From a virus, in the IMG/VR virus record IMGVR_UViG_3300010167_000008, positions 1 through 32,394 of that record: a stretch of DNA of 32,394 nucleotides; one strand, written 5' to 3'. A model generated the notes under the pieces. It ran no database searches. It worked only from the letters and a program-made list of their open reading frames with translations, and was not told where the DNA came from. Below, one piece after another: positions 2,787-13,242 of the stretch (positions within the stretch are counted from its first letter, which is position 1; the number at the start of each line of letters is the position of its first letter). The position numbers and the translations under genes were made by a program.

Positions 2787-2956
2787 TTTACGGTCTTATA
2801 TGACACGCATTTGTGATTTTCTTTTGGATTGACATTTCCGTTGCGTGAGTTTGCACGTTGGTTCTGTCTCGAATTTGTTCTTTTTTCTATCAAAAAGGTA
2901 AAGGCATTTTTTCGGTTGGGACATTTTGTTTGTGTTTATTCAGTGGATTAAATGGC

Positions 2957-3022
2957 AGGGGACAGTCCGTTTGGCAGGCACGATTTAAATTAACCGCGCA
3001 CACGTCTCGGCGCGTGTCCCCT
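2957..3022 (-). other. GC-rich structured element between the methyltransferase gene and the lysis cassette
   Basis: 8-bp stem aggggaca (2957..2964) / tgtcccct (3015..3022), plus an adjacent 5-bp stem cgcgc (2995..2999) / gcgcg (3010..3014). Confidence 0.35.
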
Positions 3023-3056
3023 TCCCTCATAGTAATTAAAAAGCGGCAACGTTCAA

Positions 3057-4742
3057 TCATGGTTTTTTGAAGATTAAAACGTTCTGATGCACTCTGACGA
3101 CTTTGCTCGTCTTCATGCAGTTGTTGGCTCGCATTCCCGCGTTGCCAAATTTATTAACGAGGATAATCTCGTTGTAAAACTTGCAGCCCGCGTCCGTGAA
3201 CGCTCGGATAGTGTCGGGGACGAACCCATAGTAATTCCCGTCCTTGTCGCGAAATTCGCTAACTACAAAGGCAGCAAACCCGCCACGTTTGAGCACACCG
3301 CAAGACTTTTCTATTATCTGTCGGTACACCTGCATAAACGCGGGATATTTCATCGTGGATAGGTCTTCTGGAATGTCGCTGTACACTTCGAGGTCTCCAT
3401 ACGGAGGGCAACTCATAACCATATCAAACTCCGCTCCTTCGAGCATATCAAGGATTTGATTGCTGTCGCCGATAATCCAATTCGGCATCTTGATTTCAGG
3501 AGCCGCAACGGGGGTGCGCATGGTGGGTCGAATGCCAACTATCCACAGTAGGTCAGCGGGTTGTAGAAAGTCAATACACTTCGCCTCGTAGTATGGGTCG
3601 AGTTGAATTCCATTGTAAGTAGTAACCATTGCAGCGGAATGATAATCGCTACCATCGACGTCGACGATAGTAACCATGTCCCTCCAATTTGGCGGCGCGT
3701 ACTTATCAAGTCGCACCTCAGGGTCAGCACCAACGCGCACCGCAACAACGGGGATGTCCCGCATAGTGTCGCGCAACCCCCAAAGTACACCCGCAAGGGT
3801 CATGCCGCTTCCGCATGGCATTACAATCCGATTGACTTCGGGTGGAATGTTCTGAACTTGTTGGCGGTTCTGAGTAACAGCCTCTTCGCACTCCATACCA
3901 AAGGGGACGTCAAGATAATTCTCGGCGGCGGCAAATTCTCGGCTCCGTGCAATAATGACGGAGTTATAACCTTCCTTGTGCTGAATTATCCTCGCGCCGC
4001 TGTCTTGCGCCGCAATTAGTTCGTCGGATAACTGACCTTCGGGCGCGTGTACCACAACGGGAATGCCAAAGGCTTTTCCAATTTTGGCGAGGATATTGAT
4101 TTGCGGGCTGCTTCTGCTCCCCGCCGTTGTTATCCCCTGACCGACCGTGCGGTTCTTGATAACGAATTGAGAAGCCGTGCGAGCCTTCCCGCCAACCGCG
4201 CCACCGATTTCGAACAAGTCGTCCCGCTTGAAATAGACGTCGTCTATCAGTTGCACGGGGGTTAATTCGTTCGGGTTGCTGATGATTTGCGGTTTGGCGT
4301 TGGCAGGTGATTTGAATATTTCGCGGGCTTGCTCGTAATTGCTCTCGACCTGCTCCTTGCGGAGTTCAATGCCCGTGTAATCATAACCGAGTTTGTTGGC
4401 AACAATTCCTCGAACGGAGCCTCCTGCAAATGGATCAAGAATAGTCCCTCCCGTTGGCGCAAACCACTTGTATAACACTTCGCAGAGTGTCGCGCTGAAT
4501 ATACTTATATTAGATTTGAATTGTGTGCCAAATCTTGCATTATTCCTATTAGCGCCGCACCGTTCATTTCTTCCTAATTCTGACTTGATTCCCTTGCGTA
4601 ACCATTTGCCCTCGTTTTTATTATAATCGCCCGAGCGGGTGTCAATTATGGAAAATGGGTTCAGTAGGTACTTCCCCGCGCAAGTGGTTGTCGCGTCGAC
4701 CTTGTCGCCGAATAAGTTGTAATTTTTATTTTGTTCTGTCAT
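3057..4742 (-). CDS. Fusion protein (561 aa): permuted N6/N4 DNA amino-methyltransferase with an inserted ACC-deaminase/D-cysteine-desulfhydrase-like PLP enzyme domain (aa ~158-407, nt ~3522..4271)
   Basis: MTase motif I ILDPFAGGSVRGIVANKLGYDYTGIEL (aa 101-127) and motif IV FDMVMSCPPYGDLEVYSD (aa 439-456). Insert carries TPVQ, FKRDDL, GGAVGGKAR (K186), ITTAGSRSSPQ, PCGSGMTLAGVLWGL and GIQLDPYYEAKC. ATGA overlap with the helicase gene. Confidence 0.8.
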   Translation of the reverse strand: MTEQNKNYNLFGDKVDATTTCAGKYLLNPFSIIDTRSGDYNKNEGKWLRKGIKSELGRNERCGANRNNARFGTQFKSNISIFSATLCEVLYKWFAPTGGTILDPFAGGSVRGIVANKLGYDYTGIELRKEQVESNYEQAREIFKSPANAKPQIISNPNELTPVQLIDDVYFKRDDLFEIGGAVGGKARTASQFVIKNRTVGQGITTAGSRSSPQINILAKIGKAFGIPVVVHAPEGQLSDELIAAQDSGARIIQHKEGYNSVIIARSREFAAAENYLDVPFGMECEEAVTQNRQQVQNIPPEVNRIVMPCGSGMTLAGVLWGLRDTMRDIPVVAVRVGADPEVRLDKYAPPNWRDMVTIVDVDGSDYHSAAMVTTYNGIQLDPYYEAKCIDFLQPADLLWIVGIRPTMRTPVAAPEIKMPNWIIGDSNQILDMLEGAEFDMVMSCPPYGDLEVYSDIPEDLSTMKYPAFMQVYRQIIEKSCGVLKRGGFAAFVVSEFRDKDGNYYGFVPDTIRAFTDAGCKFYNEIILVNKFGNAGMRANNCMKTSKVVRVHQNVLIFKKP

Positions 4743-6726: not shown

Positions 6727-7410
6727 TCAGACGATTATCGTTGTGCCGCGAACGGCAACGCGAACCCGATTGAAGCCCGCACGAGCGAACTTCGCGAGTA
6801 TCATTCCCGCCCGTGCGCCGCTTTCTGATTTATGCAGTGTTATAATTTTGGTGGTCTTGTTGTGCGCAATTCTGCTCACATAGTCGACACACTTGTCGTC
6901 TGAACAATGGTTGCGCAACCGCTCTTTTTTATCCTCGTCGAGGTCTTCAAAAATGAAGTTGTTGTAACTGCATTCAATCATAATCGCGTCGAAATTGTAG
7001 TGGCTGAGTTGGTCGATGACCTCGTCGTCAATGTGATAAAAGTCGGTTGCGTATAATATGGTCTTCTTGCATTTGGTTTGTATTATAAAGCCGTTGCAAG
7101 TTGAGGCGTTGTCGCGCAAGATTTTCGCATGATAATCGTGATGCACGGGGAAGGAGTACACGTCGAATTCCGTTACCTGCTTTCCGAAGAAAATCTCGTA
7201 TTGCTTTGAAACGTTAAAAACGAAGTGGTCGGAGTGTCGGTGGCTGACAATGAAGCCGCAATATTCTTTCGCCTCCTTTGTGTTGGCGATGACGGAGGAG
7301 TAGTTGAGCCACGCCTCAACGACGAGGCAGTTGCCCGCCTCGTCGATAAGAGCATAACTGTTTCCACTGCTACCTGTCCCGAGTACTTTAATTGTCGCCA
7401 TTGATGTCAA
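6727..7410 (-). CDS. Metallo-beta-lactamase-fold hydrolase (227 aa), probable nuclease of the recombination module
   Basis: IKVLGTGSSGNS near the N-terminus and an HxHxDH motif (VSHRHSDH). Confidence 0.7.
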   Translation of the reverse strand: MTSMATIKVLGTGSSGNSYALIDEAGNCLVVEAWLNYSSVIANTKEAKEYCGFIVSHRHSDHFVFNVSKQYEIFFGKQVTEFDVYSFPVHHDYHAKILRDNASTCNGFIIQTKCKKTILYATDFYHIDDEVIDQLSHYNFDAIMIECSYNNFIFEDLDEDKKERLRNHCSDDKCVDYVSRIAHNKTTKIITLHKSESGARAGMILAKFARAGFNRVRVAVRGTTIIV

Positions 7411-7651
7411 ATTTTAAAAGAAAACGTTTCTTTAAGTTTGAATTACAAACAGTTGTAGATTCTAAAATAGACTTTTCAAATGCTTTTATTGCTTTTTCTA
7501 TTATTTCTTCTTCGGAGAGTTCAACTGCTTTAATTGCATCTTTTTTAAGAATCGTTTCGATTGTGATTTTTTCATTGCTTAATATGTTTCCATTATAAGA
7601 AACAAATACTATCGCATTATCGATAAATTTACTTGCGTTTTTACTTTGCAT
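7388..7651 (-). CDS. Hypothetical protein (87 aa)
   Basis: ORF whose start shares one base with the RecT-like stop; AT-rich. Confidence 0.45.
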   Translation of the reverse strand: MQSKNASKFIDNAIVFVSYNGNILSNEKITIETILKKDAIKAVELSEEEIIEKAIKAFEKSILESTTVCNSNLKKRFLLKFDINGDN

Positions 7652-8577
7652 TAATCGAATGGGTGTTCTTCGGGTTCGGTTGTTACGGGTTCGGGTTCGG
7701 ATTTGAGCCCTGCAATAATTGCCTCTTTTTTTGGCGGCGGTGGTGTGTCCGCTTGCGCGGGTGGGTGTTGCGTTTCTTTCTTCGGTTCGGATACTTTGGT
7801 TAATACCTTGTTATCTTTGACCTCAACGTATTCAACGTCAATCGGTTTGCCTTCGTTTTCTTGCGAATAACCTGCAAACTCGTTCGGGAATGCTCGCTCA
7901 AACGCTTGCGCGAGTGCCACCTTGCAAATCATGAACGCGGGGCGCGTGAGCCATATCTCGTTCACTTCCTTGTCGGTGTACTTTCTAAGTTTGTCGTCCC
8001 AGTTGGTATTCTTTGCATTGTTGAAGCGGTTTTCCTCGAAAGATACTTCGCTGATTTCGTGGTGTTCCCAATCCTTGCGATATACCTCCGCCCATCCTGC
8101 AATGAGGATTTCCTTTGGCAGCAACCACTCGCCCGCACGACGAACGAGTTCGCCTTTGTCGGTTACAACGATGATTCCGTGTTTGCAGCCATTGTAGTTC
8201 GGGCTCATGGCAGCGCGGCGCATGGCAACCTCGTAGGATGGCATTAACACCACTTTTCCGCCTTTCTTTGTAATGGATACATCGCGGCTTGCGGGGTTGA
8301 GACCGAGAATTTGCGCGTCGATAAATACCTGCAATAATTCGCCATAATCCCAACAATTTTCGAAGTCTTTCTTCGCTTGGTGTGGCAACTCTGCCTCGCA
8401 GGATTTCCCCATATTTTTCAGAAAATCCTCCTTTGATGTAATGTCTTTCAAGCCAAAGAAGGCTCGCATGGTTATTCCGCATCTCTCCTTACAAAGTGCG
8501 GCGGCTTCCTGAGCCGTTGCAAGTGCAATCGCCTCTTGCATGGTTACTTTTTTGATTGCTTTGGTTTCGTCACTCAT
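7651..8577 (-). CDS. RecT/Bet-like single-strand annealing protein (308 aa)
   Basis: LGLNPASRDVSITKKGGKVVLMPSYEVAMRRA and WLTRPAFMICKVALAQAFERAFPNEF resemble the RecT-family core; Pro/Glu-rich acidic C-terminal tail ending EEHPFD. Confidence 0.6.
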   Translation of the reverse strand: MSDETKAIKKVTMQEAIALATAQEAAALCKERCGITMRAFFGLKDITSKEDFLKNMGKSCEAELPHQAKKDFENCWDYGELLQVFIDAQILGLNPASRDVSITKKGGKVVLMPSYEVAMRRAAMSPNYNGCKHGIIVVTDKGELVRRAGEWLLPKEILIAGWAEVYRKDWEHHEISEVSFEENRFNNAKNTNWDDKLRKYTDKEVNEIWLTRPAFMICKVALAQAFERAFPNEFAGYSQENEGKPIDVEYVEVKDNKVLTKVSEPKKETQHPPAQADTPPPPKKEAIIAGLKSEPEPVTTEPEEHPFD

Positions 8578-8890: not shown

Positions 8891-9305
8891 TCCTTTGGGA
8901 CGGGAGGATAAAATAGTCATCGGGATTAAATTTTGGTTTGTACTTCTTTTCGTAAAAATCTTTAACTTTTTGGCACTTTTCAGCGTCTTGGAAGTTGTTG
9001 GTGTACTTCTTTGCCTTTCTGAATAGATCGTGGAACTCATGCAAGTTTTCGGACATTTCTTGCAGCCCTTTCCGTATGGCAGCCCATCGGGATAATTCGG
9101 CGAGCATCCGCTCATTTTCCATCTGAGCAATCTCGGGCGTGATATACTTTGTCTTCCGTTGTTGCGCCGCGTGTGCCGTCTGCAATTCACACCTGCCATT
9201 TGCACGGCATTCCCCGCAAGGTGTGAAGCAAGGGTGTTGCGAGTAGTTTGGGTTGCGGGGAAACACTACTCGTTCCATAGGATAATTCGCCGCTTGATTA
9301 GTCAT
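8880..9305 (-). CDS. Hypothetical protein with an N-terminal Cys cluster (141 aa)
   Basis: CFTPCGECRANGRC; ATGA overlap with the stop of the Rad50-like gene. Confidence 0.5.
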   Translation of the reverse strand: MTNQAANYPMERVVFPRNPNYSQHPCFTPCGECRANGRCELQTAHAAQQRKTKYITPEIAQMENERMLAELSRWAAIRKGLQEMSENLHEFHDLFRKAKKYTNNFQDAEKCQKVKDFYEKKYKPKFNPDDYFILPSQRNDL

Positions 9306-11233
9306 GACTCAATAATTAACGGGGAATTTTCTTTAACCCGTAACTCCACGAGGCACGGCAACAACGGCATATTCTTTTTCTCGCAGTTTTCGGCATTGTC
9401 GAAAAAGATAGGAAGGGCAACGGCGAAATGGTCTTGAAATCGTTGGCAGAGCATTGATAGTTTCGCATTTGCGCGGCTTGTATTTGGATTTTCAAACCCG
9501 TCAATCTTCATAATGGCAACCTCTTCGAAGCCCTCTTGCGTTATAAGTTTACGGAACAAAGTGATTTCAATTCCATCGGGAAGAAACTTGGAAATAGCGT
9601 CCTGACAATCAGTGCGATAATCGTTCTCAGCCTGCTCAATGGCAATCATTTGTCGCTCGTTCTCAATTAACGCCTTGCGCACCATTTCCGAACGGGCATC
9701 ATTTTTCGCAATCTGCTCGTCCGCCGTTGCATACCCATACGCAATCTCATCAGCCTTTTTGTCTTCGGATTGTAACTGCTCGATTTCGAGTTTGGCTGCT
9801 TGGATTTTTTCGCTGTTATTCACACCCTTGAAATCCGTGATGATTTTGGCTTGTAACTCCGCAATCCTCTTCGCCTTGTCGTCTTCCCACTTGCAAAGGT
9901 TGGCAGCGTTTTCGTCGTTGATAACCTGATTGTCGTGCGAAAACTGTTCACGGGCTTTCGCGTTGGTTTCGTTAATGGCAGCGTTACGGGCGGCGATTTC
10001 CTCGTTCTCCTTCTTTATTGCTTCGTTCTGCAATTCGATTGACTCGTTAAAAGTCTTGTCAAGGTTGCGCAATTCCGAACCTTGCTTTGTAACCGCGTCA
10101 ATCTCGGCAACAATGGCGGCTTTCCGCTCTTCAAGATTTTGCACCGATTTGTCAATCTCTTCCAATTTGGCAGCAATTTTCAGAGCGGCGTCAGCCTTGC
10201 TCGTATTGCGTTGAATTTCGGCGCAATCGGCATTCGTGCAGTACGGGCAAACCATACAGATGAAGTCCTCTTTATCGGCGGCGGCGGAGGTTACACTTGC
10301 AACCGTTTCTCGCTGTTTATTCCAATATGCAATCTTTTCATCGATGGCTTCGCGTTCTGCTACCTTCCCGCGATAAGTTACCAACAACCGCTCAATTTCG
10401 GGGTTCTTCTTGAGTTCAAGGTACATTTTAGGAGCCTCAATTTCGGCGGGCGTGAAAACGAGTTGCGGTTTGGGTGTAAACTTTTCGCCGTGAATATCTT
10501 GTATCTTTTCGCGGAGGCTTTGATTTTCCGCTAAAACATCGCTTGACACGGCGGCACGTTCTTCTTCATACATTTGCTCGATTTCTTTTTGAAGTGCGCT
10601 GATTCGGGCTGTATTGCGGTCGGTTTTTGGTTTTTCAGCGAAAGTCTCCCGCAAACTCTTTGATTTTATGTTCAACTCCTCCATTTCAGCCTTCTGCTCG
10701 TTGATTTCCTTGCGCAACACCGCTTTATTCGGAAGTTCGCGAATATAGTCAATCAGGTTCACGTTCACAATGGAGGAAATTATCTTGAGTTTATCCTTTT
10801 GCGCAAGGCTGATGAAATATTGCGGGTTTGTGAAAAGAGCAAGGTCGTAACCCTTGCAAGTATCCGCGATAGCGGCATTGTAGTCCGCCAACTTTACGGG
10901 CGTTTCGTTAAGAAAATATTCGCAGTTCAATTCGGTTTTTAACTTTTCGTCGTCCGTGCCGCGCTCGCGGGAATATAGTGGCTTTGCAGCCTTGCGGAAA
11001 ATCATGTCGTCCGTGTGGAAGGCAACTTCGGCAAATCGGTTGCCGTCCCTGTCTTCGTGGTTGTACACGTTGGACGATGTGAATTCTTTCATGTCGATAG
11101 AGCGTTGGTTCATACACCATAAAAAAGCATCTAAAATGGTGGTTTTTCCGCTCCCGTTTTCGCCGCTCACGGTGGCGGGGAATGCCACCGTGAGGTCGTG
11201 GTGTTTCTTGAATCTTTTAATTTCGATTTTCAT
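9302..11233 (-). CDS. Rad50/SbcC-like SMC-type ATPase with a zinc hook (643 aa)
   Basis: Walker A GENGSGKTT, long coiled-coil middle, mid-protein CPYC hook (aa 329-332, nt ~10238..10249), C-terminal Walker B-like LPIFFDNAE. Confidence 0.7.
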   Translation of the reverse strand: MKIEIKRFKKHHDLTVAFPATVSGENGSGKTTILDAFLWCMNQRSIDMKEFTSSNVYNHEDRDGNRFAEVAFHTDDMIFRKAAKPLYSRERGTDDEKLKTELNCEYFLNETPVKLADYNAAIADTCKGYDLALFTNPQYFISLAQKDKLKIISSIVNVNLIDYIRELPNKAVLRKEINEQKAEMEELNIKSKSLRETFAEKPKTDRNTARISALQKEIEQMYEEERAAVSSDVLAENQSLREKIQDIHGEKFTPKPQLVFTPAEIEAPKMYLELKKNPEIERLLVTYRGKVAEREAIDEKIAYWNKQRETVASVTSAAADKEDFICMVCPYCTNADCAEIQRNTSKADAALKIAAKLEEIDKSVQNLEERKAAIVAEIDAVTKQGSELRNLDKTFNESIELQNEAIKKENEEIAARNAAINETNAKAREQFSHDNQVINDENAANLCKWEDDKAKRIAELQAKIITDFKGVNNSEKIQAAKLEIEQLQSEDKKADEIAYGYATADEQIAKNDARSEMVRKALIENERQMIAIEQAENDYRTDCQDAISKFLPDGIEITLFRKLITQEGFEEVAIMKIDGFENPNTSRANAKLSMLCQRFQDHFAVALPIFFDNAENCEKKNMPLLPCLVELRVKENSPLIIES

Positions 11234-12366: not shown

Positions 12367-13242
12367 TTATAAGGAGTTTACATAATCCTTCAATTCTTGG
12401 ATATAGGTAACGCGCTCGCGTTCTTCTGTGTCTTTTAGTTCAAAAAACAAGTTTTCGTCAAACACGCTGTTAATTGCTTCCTCACACATGGATTGTATTT
12501 TTTCTGGGCGCACGGCGTCGAGTTCCACTTGTCCCAACCCATCCCAATTCGCTGTCCTGCTATCCGTAACCTTTGCAGGCGCGGGCGGCAACTTCCACTC
12601 GATAACTTGGTGCTCCATGAGCGAAATCCGTCTCACGTCCACGTCCACTCCGAGTTTCATGAGATTATCCTTGATTGCGCGTGGTATGTCCTCCCCACTT
12701 GGGTCATAGTCGCCAAAGTACAATATCACGGGTGTTTTTCCATGTCTCACGGCACGTTTGAAACGGCGGGATGCTTCATATAGAAACGTCAAAGAAGGAT
12801 AACCCTTGCAAGCCCCCAACCCGACGTCGTGTTTACTGCACACCTTGTCAAATACTCCCTCGAGTGCCTTTTTTTCAATAAATACCTCAGGATAAATCGG
12901 TTGATTTTCCCAACGGTTTTTTCTGTAAACCGTCATCCACAATCCGACCTGACGTTGTCCTTCGTCAATCTTGTCAGATAACACGGTTTCGTCGGCGTTG
13001 GTGTCGTTTGCCATTTCTCTATCCCTGTCGCAGAATGTATCAAAATCAACAAGCCCGTCCCACCTTGCAACGCCCATCGCCGCAACGACGCGGTCGTAGT
13101 GTTGTTGTGTGTTGGTCATGCCGATAGATACGAGTTGGTAGTGGAGTGCTCTGATTGTGAGCACTCCTTTTTCGTAGCGTTTGATAATCTCTAGGCTGTT
13201 CTCAATTATCCATTGTCTTGTAAATTGGTCTCTTGCTGCCAT
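12367..13242 (-). CDS. Spo11/Topoisomerase VI-A-like protein (5Y-CAP + Toprim), 291 aa
   Basis: R31-A-L-H-Y35 matches the R-x3-Y catalytic Tyr motif; Toprim Glu in VFIEKKALEGVF; KGYPS; DxD in ILYFGDYDPSGEDI; C-terminal GQVELDAV. Confidence 0.65.
   Translation of the reverse strand: MAARDQFTRQWIIENSLEIIKRYEKGVLTIRALHYQLVSIGMTNTQQHYDRVVAAMGVARWDGLVDFDTFCDRDREMANDTNADETVLSDKIDEGQRQVGLWMTVYRKNRWENQPIYPEVFIEKKALEGVFDKVCSKHDVGLGACKGYPSLTFLYEASRRFKRAVRHGKTPVILYFGDYDPSGEDIPRAIKDNLMKLGVDVDVRRISLMEHQVIEWKLPPAPAKVTDSRTANWDGLGQVELDAVRPEKIQSMCEEAINSVFDENLFFELKDTEERERVTYIQELKDYVNSL

Follow-up and report, generated by a model that had tools for sequence, protein, structure and literature searches.

Why should a phage protein hold a pyridoxal 5'-phosphate (PLP) enzyme domain in the middle of a DNA methyltransferase fold, and what might the two do together? 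The question is raised by a 561-amino acid (aa) open reading frame (ORF), here named P0001, in the viral record IMGVR_UViG_3300010167_000008, a complete genome of 32,394 bp with terminal repeats that was analysed over its whole length (the window). A preliminary description, made from the letters of the window, had seen in this gene a candidate for post-replicative hypermodification of DNA rather than for simple methylation. That view gains real support, as the PLP domain shares a protein family (phrog_3650) with gp226 of Salmonella phage ViI, and the two modules are kept together across many lineages, either fused, in three orders, or as neighbouring genes. P0001 probably makes a DNA base modification that has not been described before. 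As to its nature, our tentative reading, to which we give somewhat less than an even chance, is that of a single-polypeptide, two-step enzyme, in which the 3-amino-3-carboxypropyl (acp) group of S-adenosylmethionine (SAM) would be transferred to a base and then decarboxylated with the help of PLP, leaving an aminopropyl base.

A methyltransferase-like module in two pieces

P0001 was verified as one unbroken frame without an internal stop codon, and every motif quoted in the preliminary description is present in it. The protein matches the Pfam family N6_N4_Mtase (PF01555) with 41 bits (cutoff 26.7), and the match comes in two pieces, with profile positions 166-218 on aa 82-134 and positions 2-106 on aa 440-560. 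Since the two halves of the profile are matched in swapped order, the methyltransferase module is both permuted and split by an insert, which upholds the architecture that had been proposed. An alignment with 2zie spans aa 75-133 and aa 424-496. The N-terminal part of the module (aa 1-157) contains a conserved N-terminal element (aa ~25-58), a helix before motif I, motif I itself and, after strand 2, an acidic residue (E126, which the family consensus gives as D or E), while the C-terminal part (aa 408-561) contains strand 3 (WIIGDS), motif IV and the remainder of the fold. In ordinary relatives the halves had been described as joined by a short linker, and this arrangement is seen in Enterococcus phage phiFL3A gp36.

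Among 110 homologues with 36-55% identity, D103, G107 and G108 of motif I are invariant, as is the whole of motif IV (C445-P446-P447-Y448). The latter departs from the canonical (D/N/S)PP(Y/F/W), with a cysteine replacing the Asp, Asn or Ser of amino-methyltransferases. This cysteine is found in all of the top 120 homologues, and CPPY is also present in 118 of 119 insert-free relatives, for which reason it was dropped as a signature of the PLP-fused enzymes. Searched against the PDB, a profile of the insert-free module gave weak matches, the best being TTHA0409, a beta-class DNA methylase (E 3.5e-6); further weak matches were collinear N2-guanine RNA methyltransferases (Trm-G10-type, Tgs1) and DNA N4-cytosine methyltransferases.

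The PLP domain and its phage relatives

The insert itself (aa 158-407) belongs, by profile and predicted structure, to the fold-type-II PLP enzymes. It matches Pfam PALP (PF00291) above the cutoff of 35 bits, both alone (E 3.8e-13, 49.9 bits) and within P0001 (aa 167-341, E 2.3e-12, 47.3 bits), and the family that it matches best is phrog_3650 (E 2.6e-30, insert alone). An AlphaFold2 model of P0001, built with the 110 homologues, is a compact two-domain protein with a mean predicted local distance difference test score of 90.8 and a predicted template modelling (TM) score of 0.84. The best fold matches of this model in the PDB, determined with Foldseek, are of the D-cysteine desulfhydrase (DcyD) and 1-aminocyclopropane-1-carboxylate (ACC) deaminase type, with a tryptophan-synthase-beta-like fold and E-values down to 3.6e-13 (4d92; TM-score for 1j0a, 0.65 on the target).

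Within phrog_3650, ViI gp226 is a core member (E 2.5e-241). Experiments with purified proteins have identified gp226 and gp52 of Pseudomonas phage M6 as PLP-dependent decarboxylases (Lee et al., 2021; PMC8989533), the substrates being O-serinyl-T and C-alpha-glycinyl-T that are already in DNA, and their aldimine lysines have been predicted, on the template 1j0a, to be K92 and K36, respectively (PMC8989533). M6 gp52 belongs to phrog_7093 and matches phrog_3650 weakly (E 2.7e-4). A further member, MONT_41 of Glutamicibacter phage Montesquieu (E 6.6e-46), adjoins an aGPT-Pplase2 gene in a thymidine-hypermodification cluster. In pairwise comparisons the insert scores 61 bits with MONT_41, 38 + 35 bits with gp226 and 26 bits with gp52; its cellular relatives in the PDB reach 16 bits (1j0a) and 11 bits (DcyD), the latter two scores coming from a different program and setting. 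The insert aligns collinearly with gp226 and gp52 all the way from the TPVE to the C-terminal LWIVG box, all three lysines coincide (K186 = K92 = K36), and the three proteins have the same best structural template, 1j0a. The SPQ, glycine-loop and YExK motifs are common to gp226 and the insert. Like P0001, both decarboxylases are encoded by phages, and they act on DNA after replication, as P0001 may do. They differ in being free-standing and in working downstream of 5-hydroxymethyl-2'-deoxyuridine (5-hmdU), a DNA kinase and an amino-acid:DNA transferase (aGPT-Pplase2), whereas the partner of the P0001 domain is a SAM-binding amino-methyltransferase-like module; identity is ~23-25%. Judged from these family matches and alignments, the PLP domain is a homologue of enzymes whose decarboxylation substrates are amino acids tethered to bases of double-stranded DNA.

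The residues expected of an active PLP enzyme are conserved. K186, G311 and K388 are invariant in the 110 homologues, and S212, P213, Q214, S312, G313, Y385 and E386 are each at least 90% conserved. K186 had been placed at the Schiff-base lysine position, and it indeed aligns with the PLP lysine (GGNK) of the ACC-deaminase homologue 1j0a as well as with those of gp226 and gp52. On the conservation of their motif residues, both modules appear to be intact and under selection, in agreement with what had been claimed. The acidic residue of YEAK presumably sits where the ring nitrogen of PLP is contacted, as known from ACC deaminase. Where ACC deaminase and DcyD have an Asn after the conserved serine, the P0001 family has a nearly invariant Pro, as in gp226. 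From general PLP enzymology, this replacement and the acidic residue at the ring nitrogen would fit a reaction specificity other than beta-elimination.

The match with ACC deaminase and DcyD in the preliminary description was thus borne out for the fold and for the equivalence of the lysine, the serine and the Tyr-Glu pair, but membership of those families is ruled out by scores far below the cutoffs of the NCBIfam models TIGR01275 (31.1 bits vs. 289.4) and TIGR01274 (15.2 bits vs. 392). The insert is also, as remarked before, richer in GC (0.531) than its flanks (0.459 and 0.485). However, the excess lies in codon position 1 (0.616), and GC at codon position 3 (0.564) is ordinary for the genome, so that the difference reflects amino-acid composition and not recent acquisition, and GC was dropped as evidence of a foreign insert.

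Distribution of fused and split forms

Relatives of P0001 were sought among 1.84 billion representatives clustered at 50% identity and in a separate database clustered at 90% identity. The former yielded 1,919 clusters at E < 1e-30, PLP-free relatives included, and nearly all of the best 150 carry both modules; among the best 120 of the latter, PALP was detected in all and PF01555 in 119, with an N-terminal ParB domain being usual. In total ~244 of 255 retrieved proteins contain both modules. The architecture, for which no characterised enzyme had been known, is therefore not rare, although we found no study of it. A nucleotide search of a phage collection gave no close relatives of the P0001 gene.

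When three query segments were mapped on the 255 proteins, 209 showed the order of P0001 (N-PLP-C), 27 had the PLP domain at the C-terminus (N-C-PLP) and ~7 at the N-terminus (PLP-N-C). In a quick and partly resolved FastTree phylogeny of the methyltransferase module, forms with the order N-C-PLP are interspersed with those of the inserted order, and well-supported branches require at least six changes of label. Since C-terminal, N-terminal and separate-gene arrangements exist, the exact geometry of the insertion is not essential.

Both fused and split versions, which the preliminary description had suggested looking for, occur in cultured phages. The modules are fused in Pseudanabaena phage Pam4 (gp70) and in the Erythrobacter phages vB_EliS_R6L (gp1) and ZS04, and they form a pair of overlapping genes, gp1 and gp2, in the Mycobacterium phages Vincenzo (NC_028934) and AlanGrant (KR080200). 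In the Vincenzo locus (L003:1-2275) gp1 and gp2 overlap at nt 1406-1440, and likewise in AlanGrant; gp1 consists of ParB and a complete methyltransferase module, and gp2 is a stand-alone PLP protein of phrog_3650 (E 6.3e-85). The annotations in these cultured phages go no further than 'PLP-dependent enzyme', 'DNA modification methylase' and, for gp2 of Vincenzo and AlanGrant, 'carboxylate deaminase' or 'nucleoside deaminase', labels that are probably wrong. The hosts of cultured phages with the pair are a cyanobacterium, an alphaproteobacterium and mycobacteria, while prophages with the pair are found in Actinomycetota, Pseudomonadota, Bacteroidota and others.

In species-representative bacterial genomes 407 related loci were found, of which the best 80 were counted. 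Five of these have the PLP domain in the same ORF, and in 13 it is encoded by a separate ORF, which touches the methyltransferase gene or overlaps with it and lies directly downstream in 12 cases. The CPPY module is thus accompanied by a PLP enzyme recurrently, but not obligatorily. In the stand-alone partners the lysine is preserved; they fall into two types, one close to the P0001 domain (Actinomycetota) and one divergent (GGTK, HYDAK) that resembles M6 gp52. No third conserved neighbour of the pair was found, only small clusters of likely packaging genes.

Several further observations were made at these loci. Divergent PLP proteins with GGTK(A/V)R at the lysine stand beside insert-free CPPY genes in Pseudomonadota and Bacteroidota (L038:4959-5876, L048:1786-2631, L049:5023-5766, L053:5005-5703, L063:5100-5849, L074:4846-5631, L077:4861-5649, L029:125-832 and L046:1147-1854); all are downstream of the CPPY gene except that of L029, which is upstream, and the L063 member has DPHYDAKAW. 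Two proteins, P0184 (716 aa) and P0317 (719 aa), contain tandem CPPY modules in the order N-C-N-C and no PLP domain. In Staphylococcus phage Alsa_1 (L006:2915-5675) a 242-aa PLP-like protein (YEAK, GSG) is encoded three genes downstream of an unrelated DNA methyltransferase; this phage was rejected as a split version, as the methyltransferase has SPPY and a different motif I, and here a methyltransferase and a PLP enzyme may have been paired independently. R6L gp7 (L002:2641-3684), ~1.4 kb upstream of gp1, resembles phosphoadenosine-phosphosulfate reductase and is not conserved in the other loci examined.

A proposed reaction and its alternatives

If the PLP domain of P0001 decarboxylates an amino acid on DNA, as its relatives do, that amino acid has to be supplied. 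The preliminary description had noted no other DNA-modification gene in the genome, and in agreement with this, PHROG scans of ~40 ORFs across the genome and Pfam searches of ten ORFs in its left half and at the terminase end found no other recognisable gene of this kind; dUMP (deoxyuridine monophosphate) hydroxymethylase, 5-hmdU kinase and aGPT-Pplase were not found in these searches of the complete 32.4-kb genome. With no enzymes for a tethered amino acid in the genome, SAM is the simplest source of an alpha-amino acid, and it is the only amino-acid-bearing ligand implied by P0001 itself. Most likely, the amino-acid substrate of the PLP domain comes from SAM. In the route that we propose, the methyltransferase-like module, with its invariant CPPY, would act as a SAM-binding, base-flipping transferase that takes the acp group of SAM instead of the methyl group and attaches it to the exocyclic amine of the flipped base (N6 of adenine, N4 of cytosine or N2 of guanine), with release of methylthioadenosine. 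The free alpha-amine of the tethered amino acid would then be joined in a Schiff base to the PLP on K186, and the second module would take off CO2 to give a positively charged N-(3-aminopropyl) base; in PLP-free relatives the product would stay at the acp adduct. Like other cationic hypermodifications, such a mark could shield the phage DNA from host nucleases. What we infer is which group is moved and to which atom, that decarboxylation follows, and what the mark does for the phage. Precedents, by analogy only, are the methyltransferase-fold acp and aminopropyl transferases TYW2, nicotianamine synthase and spermidine synthase. Another analogy, and again only that, is CmoX, a phage carboxymethyl transferase and methyltransferase homologue that moves a non-methyl group (PMC12783734).

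Several points weigh against this route. Motif I, with D103, shows the conservation seen in ordinary methyltransferases, which fits a normal pose of SAM and plain methyl transfer. The fused and the PLP-free modules have about 55 positions in common with a conservation of 90% or more in each group, and the group-specific changes between the two are peripheral only, none being in motifs I or IV, so that the comparison gives no sign of altered cofactor handling. No PLP gene lies within 4 kb in 62 of the 80 bacterial loci, and the phiFL3A genome contains no phrog_3650 gene anywhere; the module therefore works alone in these cases and may do no more than methylate. PLP families contain enzymes of widely differing reaction specificity, and homology to decarboxylases is no proof of decarboxylation. 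Finally, acp- or aminopropyl-modified DNA bases were not found in the literature searched. Extended to the whole CPPY family, the proposal would make of it, in place of methyltransferases, a new class of DNA alkyltransferases by which the acp or aminopropyl group of SAM is moved to a base of double-stranded DNA, with a fused or adjacent PLP enzyme trimming the adduct, and the products, N-(3-amino-3-carboxypropyl) and N-(3-aminopropyl) purines or cytosine, would be unknown natural bases in phages and prophages of many bacterial phyla; this extension we hold to be on the unlikely side.

An ordinary DNA methyltransferase, making N6-methyladenine, N4-methylcytosine or N2-methylguanine, might instead carry the PLP domain as an accessory whose target is a small molecule instead of DNA. 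The domain might degrade the inhibitor S-adenosylhomocysteine or another SAM-derived amino acid and so speed methylation of the whole genome, or it might have an unrelated metabolic or anti-defence role. Such an explanation, fairly unlikely in our estimate, draws on the methyltransferase module, which has canonical and conserved SAM-binding motifs, passes the N6_N4_Mtase threshold, has the same residues with or without PLP and finds only methyltransferases as its nearest solved structures, as well as on the lack of a PLP domain in most relatives (bacterial loci, phiFL3A). It sits less well with the PLP domain, which groups with DNA-acting decarboxylases and not with small-molecule enzymes, with the invariant and non-canonical cysteine of motif IV, and with the repeated fusion and tight adjacency across phyla, which argue for one pathway and one substrate. 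Moreover, we know of no fold-type-II PLP enzyme that is directed at S-adenosylhomocysteine. The methyltransferase core, identical with and without PLP, would also be accounted for if the two steps ran in the reverse order, and so would the optional nature of the PLP partner and the free position of its domain in the polypeptide; the canonical motif I and the many PLP-free relatives fit this order as well. The PLP domain would then decarboxylate free SAM, and the module would transfer the aminopropyl group to the base in the manner of spermidine synthase, itself an aminopropyl transferase with a methyltransferase fold, while PLP-free relatives would use the host pool of decarboxylated SAM. We regard this order as improbable, since the SAM decarboxylases known to us are pyruvoyl enzymes. 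Furthermore, those relatives of the PLP domain that have been characterised work on substrates tethered to DNA (PMC8989533).

The preliminary description had favoured alanylation, as in willardiine and lupinic acid synthases. This would be a beta-replacement in which the PLP domain makes an aminoacrylate from serine, O-acetylserine or cysteine and alanylates the base that the methyltransferase scaffold has flipped out. The fold-type-II fold is confirmed and the equivalent of Ser78 of ACC deaminase (S212) is kept, but the insert has no specific similarity to beta-replacement enzymes of the cysteine-synthase type, its closest relatives being decarboxylases, and it misses the cellular family models TIGR01275 and TIGR01274 by a wide margin. 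In place of the Asn after the serine there is a nearly invariant Pro, as in gp226, and the conserved SAM site would be left without a role. Alanylation has thus found no specific support and seems very improbable, and the other possibility raised at that time, PLP chemistry on the amino-acid part of SAM, lies closer to what the evidence favours. We give next to no credence to the PLP domain being a catalytically dead structural or DNA-binding insert: with ~250 aa it is indeed shorter than its cellular relatives (~325 aa), yet the lysine, the glycine loop and YExK are invariant or nearly so in homologues of 36-55% identity, and the same residues are kept in stand-alone partner genes.

Comparison with related phage systems

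Taken as a whole, P0001 would work most like a merger of a phage methyltransferase of the ParB-locus type with a tailoring decarboxylase of the gp226 type. The loci in question, in which phage N6/N4 DNA methyltransferases fused to ParB occur just upstream of terminase genes, have been described as the ParB-terminase type (PMC4738411). On the circular map, P0001 is not a direct neighbour of the terminase large-subunit gene: it lies upstream at a distance of ~2.8 kb, or about seven ORFs. The phiFL3A gp36 and Listeria phage B054 gp77 proteins contain the same methyltransferase-like module, with ~44-46% identity over both halves, the same motif order, CPPY and the ~55 conserved positions; phiFL3A gp36 differs in having no PLP domain. 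Most members of this family have an N-terminal ParB (PF02195), whereas P0001 has no ParB match, and ParB is also absent from 44 homologues shorter than 640 aa. No determined product was found in the literature for the CPPY enzymes of ParB loci. Of the cultured-phage proteins with both modules, Pam4 gp70 is 41.8% identical over 91% of P0001 and the R6L protein 35%; the Pam4, R6L and ZS04 fusions differ by an extra ParB N-terminal region (810-830 aa in all), and the Vincenzo version by its two overlapping genes, methyltransferase first and then PLP. ACC deaminase and DcyD (TIGR01274, TIGR01275; 1j0a, 4d8t, 1f2d), the best fold matches of P0001 among solved structures, have equivalents of its lysine, of the following serine (S212) and of the Tyr-Glu pair (Y385-E386), but the insert is ~75 residues shorter, has Pro in place of the Asn after the serine and is embedded in a DNA enzyme.

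P0001 and its relatives apparently form a widespread, uncharacterised phage family. In the full-text literature searched, no description of the fusion or of CPPY was found, although an earlier published prediction is still possible. The family falls under phage post-replicative DNA hypermodification with PLP tailoring, with a chemistry that we infer. To our knowledge, all PLP-tailored phage DNA hypermodifications begin from 5-hydroxymethyl pyrimidines that are made before replication. If our proposal is true, P0001 would represent a self-contained route of one or two genes from an ordinary base and SAM, and may give a new cationic base. A modification at such scale would affect the biology of restriction and anti-phage defence, could affect base calling in nanopore and single-molecule real-time sequencing, and could supply a compact tool for the site-directed labelling of DNA with amines. 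Should P0001 do no more than methylate, one would still have to explain why a PLP enzyme is so persistently paired with a DNA methyltransferase. The cultured phages Pam4, R6L and Vincenzo make the family directly testable.

Genome setting

Nearly every long ORF of the genome, P0001 included, is on the minus strand (Table 1). The ATGA overlap by which P0001 had been said to be coupled to the helicase gene upstream is present in the sequence, and a second ATGA couples P0001 to a 56-aa ORF downstream.

Table 1. Features of P0001 and its immediate neighbours in the 32,394-bp genome.
Feature	Position	Strand	Basis or remark
P0001, CPPY amino-methyltransferase-like module split by a PLP domain	3057..4742	minus	561 aa, complete ORF, stop codon 3057-3059
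N-terminal part of the methyltransferase-like module, aa 1-157	4272..4742	minus	PF01555 match, 2zie alignment, conservation
Motif I DPFAGG, aa 103-108, SAM-binding loop	4419..4436	minus	D103, G107, G108 invariant
Fold-type-II PLP domain, aa 158-407, phrog_3650 member	3522..4271	minus	PALP, phrog_3650, Foldseek, gp226/gp52/MONT_41 alignments
K186, predicted Schiff-base lysine	4185..4187	minus	Alignment and invariance
G311-S312-G313, glycine loop for the PLP phosphate	3804..3812	minus	
Y385-E386-A387-K388, equivalent to YE(G)K of ACC deaminases and gp226	3579..3590	minus	
C-terminal part of the methyltransferase-like module, aa 408-561	3060..3521	minus	PF01555 positions 2-106, Eco57I, 2zie
Motif IV, C445-P446-P447-Y448	3399..3410	minus	Invariant
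ATGA overlap, stop of the upstream 479-aa gene and start of P0001	4739..4742	minus	
ATGA overlap, stop of P0001 and start of the 56-aa ORF (2890..3060)	3057..3060	minus	
Upstream gene, D5/DUF5906-type primase-helicase-like, 479 aa	4739..6178	minus	Context, outside the enzyme

The terminase large-subunit gene apparently spans the ends of the contig (2-223 and 31352-32392, both minus). At the right end the ORF is missing roughly the initial 80 positions of Terminase_3, and at the left end a 74-aa ORF continues past the contig border; with pieces of the gene at both ends, the record seems to have been opened inside it. Upstream of the helicase gene lies a recombination module on the minus strand, with an SMC/SbcC-like AAA_23 ATPase (643 aa; 9302-11233), a RecT-like annealing protein (7651-8577) and a hydrolase of the metallo-beta-lactamase fold (6727-7410). 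A 291-aa ORF further upstream (12367-13242, minus) matches phrog_6247, 'DNA topoisomerase' (E 1.8e-61), and has zero Pfam matches.

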